Source: Eledone cirrhosa
Lineage: Eukaryota
Direction: 5' to 3'
Length of the DNA: 64,000 bases
NCBI GenBank assembly: GCA_964016885.1
Contig: OZ024741.1
Span: 28,024,001-28,088,000 of the forward strand
Position 1 is the first letter of the stretch. Each line of letters begins with the position of its first letter. Position numbers and translations under genes: made by a program. Below are positions 4,546 to 49,368 of this stretch, in pieces. Below the pieces are notes generated by a model. The model saw only the letters and a list, made by a program, of their open reading frames with translations, made no database searches and was not told the origin of the DNA.

Positions 4546-4734
4546 TTCCTCTATATCTCTTTCTCATTCCCTCTCTCTCACTTTCTATCTTTCTCTGGAA
4601 GAAATCTGCTGTACTCAGGCCTGGTGAGAGATGGGCTCAGCCAGGCTTCAAATGCCCTCAAAATGCCATATGTCAATAGGGTGCTCCTACGATTTTATCA
4701 GGAGTTACGGGATCATACATACCTATATATCAGT

Positions 4735-5020
4735 GAAGGCACATGGATCAGTGGTTAGAGATTTGGGCTTGCAATCATGAGGTTGTGAGTTCGATTCTCA
4801 GACTAGGTGATGTTGTTCCAGTTCTTTCAGCCGTAGAAATGAGTTGTGACGTCACTGGTGCCAAACTATATCAGCCTCTGCCTAACTGTAGAGAGGAGAT
4901 AGGTATGTATGGGTGGGCGACTACTGGTCTTCCACAAACAACTTTGTATCTGGGAGGGGAACTTTCTAGGTACGAATCCCATGGTCATTTGTGACCGAAG
5001 GGGGTCTTTACCCTTTTACC
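4735..5020 (+). mobile_element. tRNA-derived SINE (second family, decayed)
   Basis: Head TGGATCAGTGGTTAGAG...GAGTTCGATTCTC (A/B boxes) followed by a non-tRNA body. Confidence 0.6.
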
Positions 5021-5323: not shown

Positions 5324-5356
5324 TGAGTAAGGAACACCGTCATTACACCCTTGCCA

Positions 5357-5412
<56 letters not shown>

Positions 5413-5445
5413 TGGCAAGGGTGTAATGACGGTGTTCCTTACTCA
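5324..5445. repeat. 37-bp perfect inverted repeat enclosing a (TA)n tract
   Basis: TGAGTAAGGAACACCGTCATTACACCCTTGCCACTGT-(AT)n-ACAGTGGCAAGGGTGTAATGACGGTGTTCCTTACTCA. Confidence 0.9.
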
Positions 5446-5460
5446 TATATATATATATAT

Positions 5461-5666
5461 ATAACGAAGGAAGTGTGGTAAGGAACCAGGTGGACCATAA
5501 CGCACCAGAGTACTCAATACTTAGGGTAGTAGAGTGGGTAAGAGGAAAATGTTCAAGACCCCGCCGACGGCAGAGCTCGAGCCGTTTCGACGGCTATTTC
5601 TGGACTAGTCCAGAAATAACCCTCGAAACGGCTTGAGCTCTGCTGTCGGGGTCTTGAACATTTTCC

Positions 5667-5668
<2 letters not shown>
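5461..5668 (-). mobile_element. Short fold-back Penelope pLTR fragment (family of the 51918-56412 element)
   Basis: Matches 55379-55520; palindrome 5543-5667 centred on CTGGACTAGTCCAG; contains the 3' half of the hammerhead. Confidence 0.85.
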
Positions 5669-16129: not shown

Positions 16130-17708
16130 CGTGTGTGTGTGTAAACTTATTTTGTACATCGTCTTTCTTTATTTCCTTCTTCCAGTCACTTCTGTGCACC
16201 AACACATACGTGTAGAGAATAAGAGGTAGTAACAAATGACAGATAAAAGAACAAACAATAAATTAAAAATTAAGTGAGAGATACGAGGATGAGACATAAG
16301 GGATAAGGATGGATGGGGAAGGGGGGGGGGGGGGTTGATATGTGTGGTAAATATTTAGCCTGCTGATTGTCTTATCTTAATGGGGTTGATGTGGCTTCAG
16401 GGAGAGAGAGTGAAAGAAAGGTTAGGAGATTTATGATCTAGTGACCAGTCGGTCAGTTGACAGCTAATAACAGTGGGGTGGTATGTATTCCGTACGTTAA
16501 AATCCGGGTGGTTCAGTTCGAATTTTGGGATTGCTGGGTCGAATCATGCTGGTTTGAAATTTGTGAACTTGGTAGCTGCTTTGTGCCTACAGAAAATTGA
16601 TCTTTCTATTTTGCTGTTAAGCAGCATCTTATCGTACTTTAAAATATGGAATAGCTCCATATTGCAAAGTCCGCAGTGGGACATTCCATTGTTGTAGGCC
16701 CTTATTCCCGATAATTTTGACCAGCTAATCCTATATTCCTGGTTTGTGTTCTTAAGCTGCCAGATTTTATTGGCCAGCGTTGTAGAGTTCTCTAGTCTAC
16801 GGTTCTTCATGGAGTGTCTGTGAATATACCATCTTTTTTTGACTCCCTAACCGTGGACCCTATGTAGTGCCATATTAGGTTGCCTGAATTTATAGTACTT
16901 GAATCCAGGCATCTATTTTGTAGTGGGCACTTATCCGGTAGGTGGCAGTTACAGTTGGAGGCCTTCCTGTGTGCAGGTTCTCTATTGCGGTTTTGCATGT
17001 TGTTATGGGTGGGTTGAGATTTAGGCCTATTAATGTTTTGTTGTGATGCGCCCTGACGTGTGTGTGGTTGTGATGTTGTTATGTGTTTGCGTTTTGTATT
17101 TGGTGCTATGGTGTATGTTACTAGGTTATTTTCTTTAGAGATTCTTTTGTAGTTGATTTTATGTATGTGTGATTCTATGTTGGCTTCAGTAGAGTAAGAT
17201 AGTTTGATAGTTTTTCTGTTAAAGATTCTATGGTATTTGTGTAGTTTAGGGAAGTGTTTGTCAATTAGCTTAAAGAATGTAGAAGGTAGTTTGGTTTTTA
17301 TAGAGGAGTTGAATATTGGATTGAACCATAAGTATTTCCTATCTCTGGATTTTCTATAGTATTCGGTTCAGTTATTTCTGGTGCTCGTTGTCTAATTCTA
17401 TGTTTGCTATTTCTATAGGTGTGAGTAGTGTAGCTGTCATTAGGTTTGTTGCTGCTGTCTCTATCTGGTATGTATTTGAGCCCCTCCTTATGTCCAGCCT
17501 TATGTAAAGCTATGTTATAATAGTTTGCGTGTTCGTTAAAAATCTCTAGGTTAGAAGATAGGCGGGATATTCTGAGGGATATACTATGTGCTATGGAGTT
17601 AATTATGGATCGAGGGTGGTTTGAGTTATAACTAATGTAGGCTAGATTCTCGTTATTTTTATGGAAGGGCTCTATTAATCCTGTGTTTAGGTTGATTCTT
17701 ACATCTAA

Positions 17709-18620
17709 CTCAGACTCAGAAGCTCCCGCGTCTTGCGACGCATGAGGCAATCATAGTGTTCCATCGCGTTCAGTCAGCAGCCAGTTGCACAGCGTCCCGC
17801 CATTGTCTGTTTGTCGCTCGCAGGTCCATCTCAACTGTCTCGCGCCAGTTCATTTTGGGTCGCCCTCTCCGTCTGCTGCCCTGCGGGCTCCATTTAAGTA
17901 CTTGGTTCGCCAGTCTCTCCGGGGGAAGTCTCAAAGCGTGTCCAAACCAGCCCAGGCGTCCCTTGCAGATGGTAGAAGAGACTAGCTGCTGGTTGGTGCG
18001 GTTCCTGACTTCCTGGTTTGTTACATGGTCACTCCATTTAATCCCCAGGATCTTTCGCAGACATCTGGAATCGAATGCGTCCAACTTCTTCTCTTGGCTG
18101 GTCTTAAGGTGCCACGTTTCACTTCCGTACAAGAGTGTGGACAGCACGTTGTTGTTGTAGAATATCATCTTTGTTTTGATAGTGTACTTCCTGCTCTTCC
18201 AGATCTTGTCAAGCTGGTTAAATGCTGCTGAAGCCTTTCCCATTCTACATTGCAGTTCACTGTCCATGGTGCCCTCATTGTTAATGGAACTTCCTAGGTA
18301 GGTGAAGTTGTCCACTATCTCCACCTCCCCCTGTTCAATGAAGACACTGGTTGGTGGTTGGTGTGTCCCAGATAACATGCTTTTGGTCTTCTTGGCACTG
18401 ATATTGAGACCTAAGCTTCCTGATTAGACATTGATATTGTTCACAATGATTTACAGGTCAGCTGTGCTCTCTGCAAGTGCAGCAATATCGTCCGCAAAGT
18501 CCAGGTCAGACAACTTTTGCTCTCCCACCCAAGATATACCCTGGTCTTTAGACGCTCTTCTTTGTACCCAGTCAATGGCTATGGCAAAGAGAATTAGAGA
18601 GAGCGAGCAACCTTGACGCA
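17709..18620 (-). mobile_element. 5'-truncated RTE LINE nested in the Penelope element, 12-bp TSD
   Basis: Motifs [42 protein letters not shown]; (TCTGAG)2 tail; TSD TCTTACATCTAA at 17697-17708 and 18621-18632. Confidence 0.92.
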
Positions 18621-20081
18621 TCTTACATCTAAGAAGTTTGGTTTTTTAGAATTAAGTTCGAAAGTGATACTTAGGCCTAGTTTGTTGAAGAAGACTCTAA
18701 TGTTTTGCCGTAATTTTTCCATGTTTTGATTATTTAAGTTCTTAGCTAAAAGGAGTGTGTCGTCTCTATAAATTCCTCCTTGGAGGTTATTAAATTCCTT
18801 ATGTAAGTTATGCGCTATATATATATTCCAACTATGTCTGTTACCTGAGCTGAGTCGCTAGATCCCATTGTTATATCGAAGCTATTCTGTCTGTTTTTTT
18901 ATTTCCCAGTAACTATTTTCGAATCTAATGATAGTTCTCCTAGCAGCTAGTATTATTCTAATTTCATCAGAGGTTAGATCCGAGTTTTTCTGGGCAAAGG
19001 CTAGCGCTTTATCTAGGGTGACTGGGGAGATGGAGGAGTAGTAGTCATTAATGTCAAACTGTACGAAGTTGGATGTTTCCCTACTGTCTATTTTGCTGAA
19101 CCAGTCTATTGCTTCGTTAGTGTTATCCCATAGCTTAATTACTAGTTTGTCCTTGATTTGTGCTATTACTCTATCTAGTATATACTTGCTAATTTTGCCT
19201 ATATCCAACTTCGATGGGCATATTAATCTAATTGTGGGGTCTGTTTCGAAATTATTTTTATGATCCTTTAGATTAAACGTGGGGTTACAAGGGGTTAGCA
19301 GCTCGGTTCTATCAGGTATGTTCAGTTTTTTTTATTGCTAAGTCCTTCCTTATTAATTCTAGTGAGTGTAGATTCTGTAGTTTTCTTGTATTTTTTGTGT
19401 AGCTCACGGCGTATAAAGTTATTGTATGTATTAAGGCTCACGGTGTATACGTTTGATGTTTTGTCAGCTTTTACTATAATACCGTTGGTGTTGCGTAGTT
19501 TCTTCAGTAGTGTATTGATGTCGTTTTGCAGTTTGTTGTAACTCGTACGGGTTACAACTTATCATGTTCATGAGGTCAAGTTCGAAGGCATCAAGCTGGG
19601 GGTTATTCGGTGGATTTTTGCAGGATTTGAATCCGTATTTTTCCCTAGTAAATTCCTCTGTGTTATTAGCGTGTCCTTTATCGTAATGATAGGCCTTCCA
19701 TCGGATTTGACGGATTAAGTCATTAGTACACTCTATCATGCCGAGTGTATAGTCCTTGTTTGTAGTTATAAGTATGTTTTTTAAGGACATGCCTATGTGG
19801 TGCTTTTCCATGTTAGTGCCGTGCGTTAAGGTTGTTGCTCAACCTAGTGGGAGCTGGGTATATGGGATAACAAGTTATCGTTATAGGTAATCTAGTTAGA
19901 GGTTGTGAGTACTCTGTATTGTGGATAGTTTTAATGCAGGGCTTTATTTGACTCAACAAGATGTTTCCATAGTTAGGTAGCGAGTTCGCAAGAATTCCTA
20001 TGCAGGTTATACTTGGAGTAATAATAGTGAAAGATTGAAGAATAACATGGTCGGCTGTACTACAAGCGGCTTTATTTCAAG

Positions 20082-20880: not shown

Positions 20881-20977
<97 letters not shown>

Positions 20978-20980
20978 GAA

Positions 20981-21133
20981 GTAGTTACACAACAGTTAGT
21001 ACACCATACCGAGAACAAATGTTTCACCTTATTCGGATCCTTAGCTCGGTTTAAATGAAGTTGTACGAGGTAAGGATCTGAATAAAGTGAAACATTTGTT
21101 CTCAATATGGTGAACTAACTGTTGTGGAACTAC
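20981..21133. repeat. Imperfect ~68-bp inverted repeat (fold-back fragment)
   Basis: Arms 20981-21048 and 21066-21133; contains a GAAACATTTGTT half-hammerhead-like motif. Confidence 0.8.
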
Positions 21134-21210
21134 TACTACCAAACTCGTCCCACGGACTGAGTGTTCTACTACTACGGATATAACCCTCCAGTGTTCTACT
21201 ATTATATATC

Positions 21211-21351: not shown

Positions 21352-21673
21352 CAAGTATGATTTGTTAAAAATCTCCACCTTCCCAAGCACCAGAAAACAT
21401 ACAACTACCACCATATTACAATGACAGTTTGATGATATTCTTCGAATGAAACAGTTATAGTCCTGTAGAAGCCATTTCTATATATATATATAAATTAATA
21501 AAAACAATGAATAAAAACAAAGAGCAAGTTCCTTATATTAAAAAATTCATCATTTTACGATCGTTTCTAGGATATATATGTGTGTTGGTATGTATATCAT
21601 ATAGATCTATGTAAAAATATTACAAACTATCAGAGGAAATATACATACCTTCACATATATATGCTGTCTTCAG

Positions 21674-22310: not shown

Positions 22311-22371
22311 TTCTTATTATATATATTTCAAGCGTACTAACATTTATTTTACGCTCTCATCAGATAAAATA
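22311..22371 (-). ncRNA. Type I hammerhead ribozyme (left arm of palindrome)
   Basis: Minus strand: UUUUAU CUGAUGA GAGCGUA...UACGCUU GAAA UAUAUA UA AUAAGA. Confidence 0.8.
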
Positions 22372-22497
22372 CAAAAGTTGTTTTACAGATAGAGACATAT
22401 CCAAAACAGGAACTTATCGTTTTAAGTTCAGTTCAAACTGAACTTAAAACGATAAGTTCCTGTTTTGGATATGTCCCTATCTGTAAAACAACTTTTG

Positions 22498-22559
22498 TAT
22501 TTTATCTGATGAGAGCGTACCAAAAATTTTGGTATCCTTGAAATATATATAATAAAATA
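22498..22559 (+). ncRNA. Type I hammerhead ribozyme (right arm of palindrome)
   Basis: UAUUUUAU CUGAUGA GAGCGUACCAAAA..UUUUGGUAUCCUU GAAA UAUAUA UA AUAAAAUA; 8-bp stem I; palindromic (AU)4 stem III. Confidence 0.85.
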
Positions 22560-23647: not shown

Positions 23648-23656
23648 TGAACTATA

Positions 23657-23777
23657 TATATTTAATATAGAAATGGCTTCTACGGGACAGAGAACTGTTT
23701 CATTCGGAGGAAATCATCAAGATTTCCTCCGAATGAAACAGTTCTAGTCCTATAGAAGCCATTTCTATATTAAATAT
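23657..23777. repeat. Fold-back palindrome of a pLTR-like fragment with degenerate hammerhead core
   Basis: Arms 23657-23715 and 23721-23777; minus strand UUGAUGA UUUC CUCC GAAU GAAAC; related to 21424-21482 and 43120-43155. Confidence 0.75.
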
Positions 23778-23841
23778 GTATACTCTGCTATGTATAGAGT
23801 ACCTTACTTACTGTGGTATCCCCCGATTGAACCCTGGATAA

Positions 23842-23880
<39 letters not shown>

Positions 23881-23884
23881 ATGT

Positions 23885-24066
23885 ATGACCCCGACGGCAG
23901 AGCTCAAGCCGTTTCGACGGCTATTTCTGAACTCAGAAATAGTCGTCGAAACGGCTTGAGCTCTGCAGCCGGGGTCATATTTTTTCCTATTTCCCACTCT
24001 ACTACTCTAAGTATTGAGTACTCTGGTGCGTTATGGTCCATCTGGTTCCTTACCACATTTCCTTTG

Positions 24067-24070
<4 letters not shown>
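23885..24070 (+). mobile_element. Short fold-back Penelope pLTR fragment (family of the 51918-56412 element)
   Basis: Palindrome 23885-23977 centred on TTTCTGA-AC-TCAGAAA, then the tail ending TTCCTTTGTTAT and (AT)n. Confidence 0.85.
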
Positions 24071-24137
<67 letters not shown>

Positions 24138-24261
24138 GGAGGTGAGTTTTATTGTAGTACAATAAAGCAATGCAGATATCGGATAAGAAGCACTCTACAG
24201 TTTGTAGGACTGGAGTATACATAATATATAAGAACAAAAGATGGTTAAAAGAGTTCCATGT

Positions 24262-24330
24262 ATTTTATTATGCGCATTTCAAAAACAAATATCATCATAC
24301 AATAATATTTGTGTTTTCATCAGATAAAAC
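24262..24330 (-). ncRNA. Type I hammerhead ribozyme in inverted pLTR
   Basis: Minus strand: GUUUUAU CUGAUGA AAACACAAAUAUU...GAUAUUUGUUUUU GAAA UGCGCA UA AUAAAAU; palindromic AUGCGCAU. Confidence 0.85.
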
Positions 24331-24734
24331 AGGAAGACATGATATGAAGGTTAAAAAACACTTGTGGATAGTGCAGTTTTAAATCAACATATGAAAAGTA
24401 GTTTTAGATTGATGTGTGATATTGGGAAAAAATATTTATTTTGAGGGTGGGTGGGGTGGGGTGGAAAGGTTGAAAAAGAGGAGGAGATGAGAGTAAAAAG
24501 TGGAGAGGGAGGAGTATAATGAGGAAGGATGAGATAGGAGGAGAGATGGGTGATAGAGAGAGAGAGATAGCTTTTATAACTGAGAAAGATATATTGTTTT
24601 ACATAGAGAGGTTGAAAACCGTTGGAAGATAATGTATAAATTAAAAGAATTTGAAAATTAACGAAGAGAAAAATAATGTAAAGTTAAGGTTTGTATATTG
24701 AGGGGTTTAATAATATGTGCGATGAAAAGAAAAT

Positions 24735-26802
24735 GTCCACTCTGACAAAACCAATAACTTATATGGTATTTCCAAGGATAATTATAACAACCTTATCCTA
24801 AAGGAACTTAGGAAAAAATATCGTAAAACCAACCATGATAATTTAGAACACATAAACTTTGAAGCCTCTGAGATTATGTCAAAACTTGGCATTGAAAAAA
24901 AGACCGAACCATTCCTCCCAAGAACTCCGAGGATAAATCTCAAGGATCACAAAAACAATTTTCGCACTGAACTACCTGTTAGATTAATTGTCCCCTCTAA
25001 ATCAGATCTGGGGGTTGTTAGTAAAGCCATCTTGGATAGAATTATCCCACAGGTTCGTTCTAATTGCTCTTCTTTGAACCTAAATTTATGGTTTGGTACT
25101 TCTGAAGTGATTAGCTGGTTCAACAAATTGAATAATAAAAACAAACTAAAATTTGTTCAATTTGATATTGCCAGCTACTATTCTTCTATTTCGCCTTCAC
25201 TTCTCAATAATGCTCTATCTGATATTATGCTCTATCTGATATTATAATGCACTTAAATATTCTGACATCACCACAGATGAACTTCACATCATTCTCACCG
25301 CACGTAAAACCATCCTAGAGTTCAACAACGAATATTGGACCAGAGCCGATACCTCTAACAACTTCGACATCACAATGGGAGCATCCGATTCATCCCAATT
25401 GACAGATTTAATTGGTATCTTTATTTTGAACTCTTTGAGTCGGAAAATTCCTCAACTTCGCGGTGGAATTTATCGTGACGATGGACTCTTTACTATCTTA
25501 AATTGCAACATAGTTAACCTTAATATTATTAAGAACAATATACGTAATCTCTTTAACCAACATAACCAAAAAATTGAATTTGATAACAGCATCAAACTAG
25601 CTAATTTCTTGGATGTATCTCTTAATCTTGACACTGGCCTATATTACCCTTACCATAAAAACAATGAGAACCTAAATTATGTTAACTTTAAATCTAACCA
25701 TCCTACTAATATTAAGAATGCTATAGTTAGTAATATTGGAAAAAGAATATCTAACCTATCTTCTAATAAAAACATCTTTGATGCTAACGCCAATTACTAT
25801 AATAACGCGCTTTCTAAAGCCGGCTATCCTGATAAAATCAAATATAGTAAAGAAACAAATTCTAGAAGAACTTACAGTAGAATAATTAATCATGATCATT
25901 CCAATAACTTTAATAAAAGACCTAGATACAAAAACATAATCTGGTATAATGCTCCTTTCTCCATCTCTATTAATAACAATATTCCTAAATTATTCTTTAG
26001 TGCCTTAAATAAATGCTTCCCTCCCTCACATATCTATAGTAAAATATTTAACAAACACACTATAAAATTTTCCTATTCGACATCCTCCAACATTCCCAAC
26101 ATTATCTCTAAACACAACAATAAAATACTAAATACTAAATCTCTTCCTTCCAACACTGAATATCATAATAATAGTAATAGTACTCCCGACGTCATTGTAA
26201 ACCCTAGGCTAATTTCTGCAAACCCAAATACAACGTCAAACACAACTTCGCTAAATGTTCTTAATACCATTCTAAATCAAGAAACTATTATTCCTATCGC
26301 AAATAACTTCTCCAATCCAATTCCTTCTATAGATAACACTAGGTCACTCGTTAATAATCTCTCTAATCGCAATTGCAATTGCCCTGTTAAAAATAAATGT
26401 CCTCTCAACAACCATTGTCTTGATAAAAACTTAATTTACGAATGTAAAGTTATAACTGACACCGATTCCTTCACCTATTTTGGCTCCACTTCCACCTCTT
26501 TTAAAGCTCGTCTTTATAACCATCATTCGTCTTTTAAATACAAACTTAAAAGAACCAACAAGGCTCTCTCAGAGCTCATATGGTCCTTGAAAGACAAAAA
26601 TATTAAATATAGCATCTTTTGGAAGAAGGTTTCTTCTGCTTCTCCATACTTGAACAGTTCTCTATCCAAAATTTGCAATCTCTGTCTAAATGAAACATTT
26701 ACCATTATATCTAATTTAGATTCTATAATAAATAGACGCACTGACTTGTTTTCTATCTGCTTGCATAAATTCCACAAAACATTCCACAAAGTATACAGCT
26801 AA
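24735..26802 (+). pseudogene. Penelope-like RT + C-terminal GIY-YIG endonuclease (disrupted near 25210-25250 by a local duplication)
   Basis: LKDHK, PVRLI, QFDIASYYSSI, MGASDS, GIYRDDGL, FLDV, HPTNI, IWYNAPFS, CNCPVKNKCPL, LIYEC...YFGST, FKARLYNH, CNLCLNE. Confidence 0.9.
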
Positions 26803-27219
26803 TATTCTTTATCAATTTAGAATCTTTTTCTCAAAGGCACATATATATATATACACTTATTTAAAAATATACCCATCTTTCTACCTTATTTCAAAGGTTA
26901 TTATACATTCTATAATACTTGTTACTCATTCTATATATCGCTCCTATTTATCACTTCCCTTTCTTCTCTTTTTCTTTTAATGTCTAACCCCTAATCTGTA
27001 CCTTTTCTCACTGTTGCCTGACATAGAATCAATTATTACATAATACAATACATTCTTACTCTATATCACCTTGTAAAAATCCTTTGTAAACAAACATTTT
27101 TTTGACCTTAGATTATTCATCCTCAATTCATTATTTTTTTCTCCCTTTCATCTAACTCATTCATGCTCATCTCACAATATATCCTTACTTAAACTACCTG
27201 TTATTCTTTTTAATAATAC

Positions 27220-27445
27220 ATATCAACATTTTCTTTCCATCGCACATATTATTAAACCCTTAATATCATTCTTAATACATATTAACTTTTTCTTTTCCAT
27301 CGCACATGTTATTAAACCCTTAAATATTATTCTTAATACATATTAACATTTTCTTTTCATCGCACATGTTATTAAACCCTTAAATATTATTCTTAATACA
27401 TATTAACATTTTCTTTTCATCGCACATATTATTAAACCCCTCAAT
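27220..27445 (+). repeat. ~60-bp tandem repeat (about 3.7 copies) in the PLE 3' region
   Basis: CGCACAT(A/G)TTATTAAACCC recurs at 27241, 27301, 27361 and 27421. Confidence 0.9.
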
Positions 27446-27804
27446 ATACAAACCTTAACTTTACATTATTTTTCTCTTCGTTAATTTTCAAATTCTTTTA
27501 ATTTATACATTATCTTCCAACGGTTTTCAACCTCTTTATGTAAAACAATATATCGTTCTCAGTTATAAAAGCTATCTCTCTCTCTCTATCACCCATCTCT
27601 CCTCCTATCTCATCCTTCCTTATTATACTCCTCCCTCTCCACTTTTTACTCTCATCTCCTCCTCTTTTTCATCCTTTCCACCCCCCCCCCTCAAAATAAA
27701 TATTTTTTCCCAATATCATACATCAATCTAAAACTACTTTTCATATGTTGATTTAAAACTGCACTATCCACAAGTGTTTTTTAACCTTCATATCATGTCT
27801 TCCT

Positions 27805-27873
27805 GTTTTATCTGATGAAAACACAAATATTATTGCATGATGATATTTGTTTTTGAAATGTGCATAATAAAAT
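27805..27873 (+). ncRNA. Type I hammerhead ribozyme in 3' pLTR
   Basis: GUUUUAU CUGAUGA AAACACAAAUAUU...GAUAUUUGUUUUU GAAA UGUGCA UA AUAAAAU. Confidence 0.85.
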
Positions 27874-27902
27874 ACATGGAACTCTTTTAACCATCTTTTG
27901 TT

Positions 27903-27976
<74 letters not shown>

Positions 27977-28592: not shown

Positions 28593-28659
<67 letters not shown>

Positions 28660-28860
28660 TATGTACACTTACATACATATATGTATACAGACGTACAGTA
28701 GTATGTATATATATATACATACATGCACACATATATATATGTACGTATGGATTCACCGAACATTTATTATAATGCTCGGTGTGTTTGTAAACAAACAACC
28801 CGTATTAAGCCGTAGTGTCCAGCAACCATCGTTGCTCGTTTGTTCAACACTGACAATGGA

Positions 28861-28903
28861 ACGCTGTACTAGTTTCAAGCTTATTAGCTATCGTCAGCAA
28901 CGT
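28861..28903 (-). ncRNA. Type I minimal hammerhead ribozyme
   Basis: Reverse complement of 29195-29237. Confidence 0.8.
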
Positions 28904-29194
28904 ATACCTTCCAGCCAGATTGTTGAACGTATATACTTACCTTATGCATGTTAACGGCCGAGTAGCCCAATTTGCATATCGAGTGTGTTAATCGGCCGGG
29001 TGCACCGAAAACGATAAACGGAAAAAATGAAACGAAATTTCATTTCCCACTCTTAGTACGGCTGTTACTTAAATATAAGTATGTACACGTACATAAATAT
29101 ATGTATACAGACGTACAGTAGTATGTATTGGGCTACTCGGCCGTTAACATGCATAAGGTAAGTATATACGTTCAACAATCTGGCAGGAAGGTAT

Positions 29195-29237
29195 ACGTTG
29201 CTGACGATAGCTAATAAGCTTGAAACTAGTACAGCGT
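29195..29237 (+). ncRNA. Type I minimal hammerhead ribozyme
   Basis: ACGUUG CUGACGA U-AGCU aaua AGCU-U GAAA CUAG UA CAGCGU; palindromic stem III ACUAGU. Confidence 0.82.
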
Positions 29238-29498
29238 TCCATTGTCAGTGTTGAACAAACGAGCAACGATGGTTGCTGGACACTACGGCTTAATACGGAT
29301 TGTTTGTTTACAAACACACCGAGCATTATAATAAATGTTCGGTGAATCCATACGTACATATATATATGTGTGCATGTATGTATATATATATACATACTAC
29401 TGTACGTCTGTATACATATATTTATGTACGTGTACATACTTATATTTAAGTAACAGCCGTACTAAGAGTGGGAAATGAAATTTCGTTTCATTTTTTCC

Positions 29499-29616
<118 letters not shown>

Positions 29617-42649: not shown

Positions 42650-42787
42650 TAACAAAAATAATAATGCTGATGTTACATAAATCGTTTAATCATTACAATT
42701 ATTTCCACGGTTCTCCACAGGGACTCGGAGATGTTAAATGATTGCCTCTAAACGATTTATGTAACATCAGCATTATTATTTTTGTTA
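42650..42787. repeat. 39-bp perfect inverted repeat with 60-bp spacer
   Basis: TAACAAAAATAATAATGCTGATGTTACATAAATCGTTTA at 42650-42688; reverse complement at 42749-42787. Confidence 0.9.
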
Positions 42788-43036: not shown

Positions 43037-43740
43037 GAGTCCCGAGTTCAATTGGGGGTAACCGCAGTAAGTAAGGTACTCAATACAATAATAGAGTGTA
43101 TACAAGAAATTTAATAATATATACAGGACTAAAACTGTTTCATTCGGAGGAAACAACGAAGAAAGCTCTAGTATCACTCCTTTATAGTCAGCCAATGAAC
43201 TTTTCAGCCTACCCTCGTATATAATATTTTGTATTATATCAACAGTAGATTTCTCGAATTCACGTGTCTCACTGGGGGAGTCTAACAAACCCGTTCAATT
43301 CTTCAGATCGGCCATCTTAGAATTTAATACAATTCGTCCATCGGATTGAGTGCTCTACAAGCCTTACGTCACATCGAGGCTAAAGTAAAGACACTTGCCC
43401 GAGCACCTCTTAACTACTCAACCATGTCTGCGTCCAATCATCCTCCATACACACACGCAACCACTCATGCACGCACCCGCTTACACACACAGCGTGGCAA
43501 CACTAGTAATAGTACACTTTTACTGTATAATGGTTGTGTAGTCATACTCTTTTAATGTTGTACTCTTTCTCCATTACATAAAGTGATATTTGCATCGCCA
43601 TATAATTTCATTTGCGTCTCGGGAATATGTCTACCTATCTATTTATCAATCAATCAACTAATCTATCTCCCCTCTCTCTCTTTCTCCCTCTCCCATATAT
43701 ATATATATTGTATATATATACGCCTCTCACTCTCTTACCC

Positions 43741-48730: not shown

Positions 48731-48925
48731 TATTATAAAATAACAGGAGGCTGGACTGGTGTAAATCCTTGAAAGGTTTATTATACTATGATCATTTCAA
48801 TGACCGGGTTCAGACAAGAGGACGACCGACTATTTAGCAGCTTCTACCTCGGTCGGCCGACCGATCATAGTATAATAAACCTTTCAAGGATTTACACCAG
48901 TCCAGCCTCCTGTTATTGTATAATA
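48731..48925. repeat. ~63-bp inverted repeat with ~70-bp spacer
   Basis: Arms 48731-48793 and 48863-48925, one mismatch. Confidence 0.9.

Positions 48926-49061: not shown

Positions 49062-49368
<307 letters not shown>

Follow-up and report, generated by a model that had tools for sequence, protein, structure and literature searches.

Hydra-clade Penelope-like elements (PLEs) are defined by an RWK-type motif, a DKG motif changed to DKT, a CxCx5C linker, CxxC and CxH motifs, a C-terminal GIY-YIG-type domain and the absence of CCHH (Craig et al. 2021, PMC8557442). In the same account, they insert into (TA)n targets, carry a hammerhead ribozyme near the 3′ end and a tail of 30–40 nucleotides (nt), are generally shorter than 3 kb, and occur as partial tandems and inverted 5′-truncated copies. 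In the anole Poseidon element PAc, two internal reverse transcription (RT) starts bound the tail, and the protein nicks and extends both strands of AT-rich targets, with uncleaved RNA as the template (Frangieh et al. 2024, PMC11167929). Inverted pseudo-LTRs with head-to-head arms, a tail on one arm only and junction palindromes have been read as products of self-priming on an antisense template, and TATA and initiator-like motifs were noted in a rotifer pseudo-LTR (Arkhipova et al. 2013, PMC3846280). A U3–A8 variant of the hammerhead core has been described (PMC4209133), the D. virilis Penelope transcript starts within the upstream repeat (PMC2377424), and non-LTR retrozymes are short non-coding derivatives of Penelope repeats, arranged as tandem units with a whole hammerhead each (bioRxiv 10.64898/2026.07.22.740005). 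Inverted repeats, tails and truncation are known PLE traits. In L1 twin priming, an inverted segment arises from a second primer, and retroviral minus-strand strong-stop DNA is a short cDNA that begins at an internal start and runs off the 5′ end of the RNA.

Here we analysed a 64,000-nt stretch of Eledone cirrhosa DNA (hereafter referred to as the window), which contains three mini-insertions, or stubs, of one PLE family together with a full element. We consider it probable that the stubs are run-off cDNAs that began at two internal sites and finished at a discrete 5′ end of the RNA, which is likely a transcription start inside stem II of the hammerhead, and that the palindromes among them arose by twin priming. 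The parent element shares with Hydra-clade PLEs the protein motifs, (TA)n targets, 3′ hammerhead, partial tandem arrangement, inverted 5′-truncated copies and tail. By contrast, it combines a U3–A8 core with a long, two-helix stem II, whereas the three Hydra rows of File S2 of PMC8557442 have C3–G8 and short stems; its tail is 80 nt long; and its family has a fixed 5′ stop, a feature that the main account of Hydra-clade PLEs in PMC8557442 does not mention. It resembles PAc in its two putative internal RT starts bounding a tail, its AT-rich targets and the presumed nicking and extension of both strands, whereas the text of PMC11167929, to which this comparison is confined, figures aside, reports neither a fixed genomic 5′ stop nor a link to transcription start. 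The head-to-head arms, the single tail and the TATA and initiator-like motifs recall the inverted pseudo-LTRs, although the stub joints favour two primings over self-priming, and the stubs lack the element body. Compared with L1 twin priming and strong-stop DNA, the primers would be target DNA ends at element-defined sites, the arms can overlap fully, there is no tRNA primer, and any strand transfer is putative. The stubs, which occur singly or as inverted pairs and retain no more of the hammerhead than its 3′ half, lie outside the retrozymes. Neither a fixed stop at a start site nor a promoter in a hammerhead was found in the literature searched by title and opening of the abstract, a question on which subscription papers, Repbase and figure-only supplements could bear.

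The stubs and the full element lie at the following positions in the window.

5461–5668, strand not assigned: palindromic mini-insertion in (AT)n, its long arm head to head with its short arm
23875–24070, strand not assigned: palindromic mini-insertion in (AT)n, a short arm joined to a long arm
49183–49323, minus strand: single-arm mini-insertion in (AT)n, equivalent to 55379–55519 of the full element (match 55376–55519)
51918–56412, minus strand: partial-tandem Hydra-clade PLE, with an upstream repeat (56412–55379), an open reading frame (ORF) and a downstream repeat (52876–51918)

The three stubs are 87–94% identical to the upstream repeat of the full element. In 5461–5668, the long arm (5461–5606, sense on the minus strand) has its 3′ end at the equivalent of 55379 and matches 55376–55520, and the short inverted arm (5607–5668) has its 3′ end at the equivalent of 55459 and matches 55473–55520; the centre reads ACT/AGT, with a possible 2-nt TA overlap. 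In 23875–24070, the short inverted arm (23875–23933, matching 55469–55519) runs to 55519, and the long arm (23934–24070, matching 55376–55515) runs from 55515. The 49183 copy carries one additional base at its 5′ joint, a G on the sense strand. The preliminary description, which gave the second copy as 23885–24070, had thus located all three correctly, along with their shared 3′ end before (AT)n (the equivalent of 55379 in each) and the folding back of two of them into palindromes. Its statement that all stop at TTCTG(G/A)ACT holds for four of the five arms, which end at 55519–55520, and fails for the fifth, which ends at 55515. Five uniformly placed ends would fall within one 6-nt window with a chance of about 1e-5, even with only 150 nt allowed, although the paired arms of a palindrome are not independent.

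Four variant columns are common to all four palindrome arms and absent from both the full element and the 49183 copy, and show that the palindromes derive from a subfamily other than that of the window's full element. Column 61, a 2-nt insertion and the base beside the centre are instead common to both arms of one copy and differ between copies. Because the variants in the regions near the centre group by copy and not by arm, they favour palindromes made anew, barring gene conversion between arms. The stubs would then be dead, independently made insertions of a Hydra-clade PLE.

The coding capacity of the full element and its ribozyme are located as follows.

53172–55291, minus strand: ORF encoding RT with a GIY-YIG-type domain at the C terminus, in two frames (55291–53819 and 53987–53172)
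55474–55569, minus strand: predicted type I hammerhead with a U3–A8 core, from a motif search (core 55564–55558, GAAA 55501–55498, cut after 55479)

The ORF contains the RWK-type motif as RLRWR (RWR), the DKG-to-DKT change as SDKT (DKT), CxCx5C as CNCPDGSIC, CxxC as CNLC, CxH as CKH, and YIGLT in the GIY-YIG-type C terminus, and CCHH is absent as judged by eye. Its homologues are ~700 amino acids long, one of them, from Argonauta hians, at 36%. A Pfam search with the two ORF halves gave no match at E 0.01, exact-pattern scans of viral and metagenome contigs gave 0 matches, and a protein scan of viral contigs gave none that was confirmed. The (TA)n targets and the hammerhead near the 3′ end agree with the Hydra clade, whereas the unit 51918–55459, at ~3.5 kb, exceeds the length general to it. 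The downstream repeat finishes at the short 3′ end (51918). Judged by its motifs and architecture, the parent is a Hydra-clade PLE.

The predicted hammerhead has the core boxes, stems I–III, a GUC cleavage site and a palindromic loop III, and its fold lies ~10 kcal/mol above the minimum. Stem II (55553–55505) consists of a proximal helix, in which 55553–55546 pairs with 55513–55505, and a distal helix, in which 55537–55530 pairs with 55522–55515. The break had been described as lying just beyond the 3′ strand of stem II; this is true of the proximal helix, and the break also falls within the 3′ strand of the distal helix, 0–5 nt into it; GAAA follows after 18 nt and the predicted cut after 41 nt. 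A second copy of the hammerhead is present in the downstream repeat (52026–51935). A search of 55300–56500 against Rfam gave no hammerhead match, and the window-wide Rfam matches (150 listed of 306) were hairpin or microsatellite noise. As a separate observation, pairing is possible at 55492–55508 between stem III and the stem II 3′ strand; the resulting hairpin (−7.6 kcal/mol) would hide GAAA and may represent an inactive state of the ribozyme.

Recurrence of the break beyond the window was assessed by mapping four public runs to 55250–55850, namely the contig sets X1 and X4, which have different organism labels and come from separate studies, and two RAD runs. Summed contig depth, which is not a copy number, was 17.5-fold higher over 55397–55501 than over 55523–55606 in X1, whose library type is not on record and which may be the window's own source, and 14.5-fold higher in X4; worst-case bins gave ratios of 8.9 and 5.4, respectively. 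Sequence divergence may contribute to the low depth upstream, yet depth is just as low over the 5′ half of the ribozyme, which is conserved. In X1, the summed depth over the stub region was ~460 times that on the ORF side. Stubs of 140–200 bases apparently make up most copies of the element. Among the 13 opposite-strand joints listed of 17, several of which rest on a single start position or a single contig, nine have one side at 55513–55519 and seven at 55518–55519 (p ~1e-6 under a uniform null), and the partner sides span 55421–55482. Only joints and loose ends were used from the RAD runs: depth steps and molecule ends at 55512, 55570 and 55573 fall on AATT sites and were set aside as products of restriction, and an end at 55523, where the reference has no AATT, probably reflects a variant AATT site. 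The preliminary description had proposed recurrent events at one point within stem II and named a uniform spread of breakpoints as the contrary outcome. The breakpoints are not uniform, given the ~17-fold and ~15-fold falls in depth and the nine joints at the site, and these joints, the differing centres and the grouping of variants by copy support recurrent events.

The 3′ side of the stubs is defined by two positions rather than one.

55379–55459, minus strand: 80-nt tail that separates the short 3′ end (55459) from the long one (55379), both being putative RT start sites by analogy with PMC11167929

The second fixed 3′ end, at 55459, recurs at the ends of the inverted arms, at the 3′ end of the full element (51918) and in many reads. 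All four runs contain loose ends in (AT)n at 55379 and likewise at 55459 (6,613 and 3,364 reads, respectively, in X9; 125 and 62 contigs in X1), and each palindrome consists of one long-end arm and one short-end arm. In the joints (55465, 55513) and (55465, 55519), the shorter sides measure 55 and 61 nt, respectively, which is precisely how far the break lies from 55459, and the long arm stops at 55465. A joint with a complete short arm and a long arm stopping at 55465 cannot be produced by one folding cDNA, whereas two primings can produce it. Partner ends lie at most 9 nt from 55459 in five of nine cases (p 0.007), or in three of seven (p 0.08) if the three 55465 joints are counted once. Twin priming that occurred repeatedly is thus a better fit to the evidence than snap-back or the spread of one subfamily. 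Snap-back of a stalled cDNA, as originally suggested, is disfavoured, since the second arm ends at the second 3′ start site and two read joints are incompatible with one folding cDNA.

In the Pol II promoter consensus, a TATA box (TATAWAAR) lies ~30 nt before the initiator A (TCAKTY or YYANWYY). Two candidate motifs of this kind are present at the break.

55543–55550, minus strand: TATA-like motif that differs from TATAWAAR at 2 positions and also forms the 5′ strand of stem II; putative in function
55515–55525, minus strand: overlapping initiator-type motifs, with A at 55523 (TCAKTY) and A at 55519 (YYANWYY), at the common 5′ break

The break coincides with an initiator-type A. Of the TATA-like matches in the 1,034-nt repeat that are paired with an initiator, the best lies 31 nt before this A. 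This repeat has 28 initiator-type sites, and a TATA-like motif (at most 2 mismatches) lies 27–33 nt upstream of 55523 and 55519 alone, one edge site being unscored; initiator consensus matches are common (2.7% of positions), and the motifs were sought once the break was known. At the TATA site, the loose-end consensus of variant copies, reverse-complemented by eye, reads TATTTAAA in X1 (10 contigs) and TATTTAT in X4 (1 contig). The TATA-like motif in stem II could persist only through stem II pairing.

We examined 83 loci encoding related proteins, most of them collapsed short-read contigs without a usable 5′ boundary, which contain 35 distinct hammerheads. A TATAWA starts 34–48 nt before the hammerhead core in 11 of the 35 (shuffles, mean 1.5, with 0 of 500 reaching 11), compared with 0–3 in each other bin from −108 to +56 and 7 of 33 at +57 to +71; the −48 to −34 bin was chosen post hoc from the listing, and the 35 hammerheads are akin, some maybe from neighbouring elements. 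TATA–initiator pairs accompany 5 of the 35, against 0.15 under the null. In many relatives, a promoter therefore appears to abut the hammerhead, the candidate lying upstream of the ribozyme and not inside it. The parent family has no TATA 34–48 nt before its hammerhead core, and its best pair sits inside stem II. In one related locus (L050), the first base of an upstream copy is precisely the A of TCATT; TATATAA lies 31 nt earlier, and an additional G precedes the copy. An additional 5′ G is expected from cap copying; it was seen in two cases only, L050 and the 49183 copy.

A run-off origin of the stubs can be laid out in steps. Insertions sit in (AT)n with two fixed 3′ ends, 55379 and 55459; by analogy with the anole element in vitro, the endonuclease would nick both target strands and RT would start at these two positions. 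The 5′ ends accumulate at 55513–55520, and this pile-up may mark a capped RNA 5′ end set by the TATA–initiator pair in the hammerhead of the upstream repeat. Since such an RNA would begin inside the upstream hammerhead, its cDNAs would be just ~60 and ~140 nt long. One priming would give a single-arm stub (49183), whereas two would yield one long and one short cDNA, and the joining of their free ends through an overlap of 0–3 nt would form a head-to-head palindrome (5461, 23885). Both arms were likely copied from one RNA, with the long cDNA displacing the short one or halting on meeting it. The text consulted of the retrozyme preprint, PMC8969392 and PMC13282606 holds nothing counter to this reading. 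On these terms, a base-precise and abundant stop would be a genomic read-out of the end of the RNA template, predicting a start at a named base, and would tie promoter, ribozyme and RT start sites together within ~170 nt. A core promoter inside a ribozyme helix would account for the unusually long stem II, and, if the reading is true, DNA sequence by itself could suffice to map PLE promoters from the ends of stubs. The stubs would also supply the host genome with many short palindromes and would offer a testable handle on how PLEs rebuild their ends.

A bolder extension, which we hold to be possible but rather doubtful, is that the stubs correspond, in Penelope, to the strong-stop DNA of retroviruses, with a template jump regenerating the pseudo-LTR. 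Transcription starting inside the hammerhead would leave the front copy unable to cut itself, whereas the complete rear copy would cut and set the RNA 3′ end, resulting in a 41-nt terminal repeat (55519–55479). RT would start behind the front copy, run off the 5′ end and jump through the 41-nt repeat to the RNA 3′ end, giving a full element, and the stubs would be leftovers of failed jumps. None of the 15 joints listed duplicates the 41-nt repeat. If true, this would provide a role for the ribozyme and a regeneration mechanism for pseudo-LTRs.

Other explanations of the break have to be weighed against a run-off end. A longer RNA may have stalled RT at the distal helix of its long stem II, whether that helix was bare or bound by protein, with the ends then joined or folding back, an account that we regard as unlikely. 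Stalling at a ribozyme helix had been suggested from the outset, and it is compatible with the break inside the distal helix, with the folding z of −2.63 for 55500–55560 and, as regards self-priming, with the interpretation of junction palindromes in PMC3846280. A second family in the window, family B (50424–51614), fits a stall equally well: its break, at 50693, lies 12 nt before GAAA, in the equivalent part of its hammerhead, at the base of a −14.8 kcal/mol hairpin, on a CA initiator-type site accompanied by a TATA with 3 mismatches only. For the parent family, however, stalling is a weak account, as the distal hairpin (−5.1 kcal/mol) is less stable than the −7.6 kcal/mol hairpin that RT had already passed in these copies, and the stop coincides almost to the base with an initiator-type A. 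Moreover, related loci with a short stem II break just upstream of stem I (in L050, at the initiator) and not in a helix, and in the family B insertion the downstream hammerhead was copied through, the break site having acted as an end in the upstream copy only. The spread of a fixed non-autonomous mini or palindromic subfamily as a unit, also raised in the preliminary description, seems to us improbable as the main cause. The four columns common to the palindrome arms and the excess of stub depth over the ORF side would suit such a unit, but a MITE-like family would have a shared centre and arm-specific variants. The centres of the just two assembled palindromes differ, the 49183 copy is not palindromic, the partner ends of joints vary over 55421–55482, and the stubs lack everything upstream of the putative start. 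The shared-mutation comparison proposed for separating a subfamily from recurrent events came out for the latter, in that column 61, the 2-nt insertion and the centre-adjacent base group by copy, a pattern that gene conversion between arms could mimic.

We likewise give little credence to a longer cDNA being cut or resolved, by the element's endonuclease or by host repair, at the first AT-rich stretch upstream of the GC-rich half of the ribozyme. The break does border an AT-rich loop, the anole enzyme cuts ATT motifs, including those of its own repeat (PMC11167929), and tails and inverted repeats have been ascribed to endonuclease resolution (PMC8557442); cutting of this kind nevertheless leaves the TATA–initiator spacing and the additional G unexplained, and other AT-rich stretches of the repeat have no comparable pile-up. 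More improbable still is that the break is a 3′ splice site and that the stubs come from spliced or half-spliced RNA. Its context, a polypyrimidine stretch followed by AG at 55519–55518, resembles an acceptor, and a D. virilis intron ends at the 5′ end of helix I (PMC4209133), but family B has no AG at its break, and the listed rows, from a region that ends at 55850 and leaves any donors beyond it outside, include no skipping joint from the site and no common upstream exon.

Hammerhead cleavage was tried and rejected as the cause of the 5′ end: the copies extend 37–41 nt past the cleavage site, and depth does not fall across it. A constant distance from break to cleavage site was also rejected, this being 41 nt in the parent family versus 26 nt in family B. 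Family B has a U3–A8 hammerhead (50755–50663) with a long stem II, and comprises an inverted short-end arm, a direct copy, a 100-bp body and a full repeat; it looks like an internally deleted element with complete terminal architecture. A third family, whose parent is absent from the window, is represented by a palindrome and two stubs (23653–23845, 21429–21478 and 43040–43153) that again have long and short 3′ ends, with the break ~14–19 nt before a GAAAC motif.

Further inverted structures occur in the window. A 242-bp palindrome at 22314–22555 has a complete canonical hammerhead in each arm and its centre ~70 nt upstream of the core. A full Hydra-like element at 24231–27904 has a 506-bp inverted repeat, a canonical hammerhead (27804–27874) and 60-bp tandem repeats (27214–27447). 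As the families at 22314–22555 and 24231–24736 break well upstream of their hammerheads, the stop pattern is not universal. Short palindromes lie beside or around (TA)n at 20976–21138, 48731–48925, 42650–42787 and 5325–5444, two of which, with GAAA and stem III-like motifs, may be stubs of other PLE families. A nested inverted duplication at 28653–29501, with 319-bp and 112-bp arms that are 99–100% identical, lies between (TA)n tracts, and two decayed Penelope-like ORFs are present at 16540–19840 and 58175–59846, the second with a weak Pfam GIY-YIG match. Outside the window, six of the related loci (L078–L083) are Hydra-type animal retroelements in contigs filed as bacterial genomes or MAGs, probably reflecting host contamination. 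One of them (L080) contains, at 4597–4813, a palindromic stub belonging to another family; it is centred ~13 nt upstream of the hammerhead core, near a TCA-type motif that is also found in L083.
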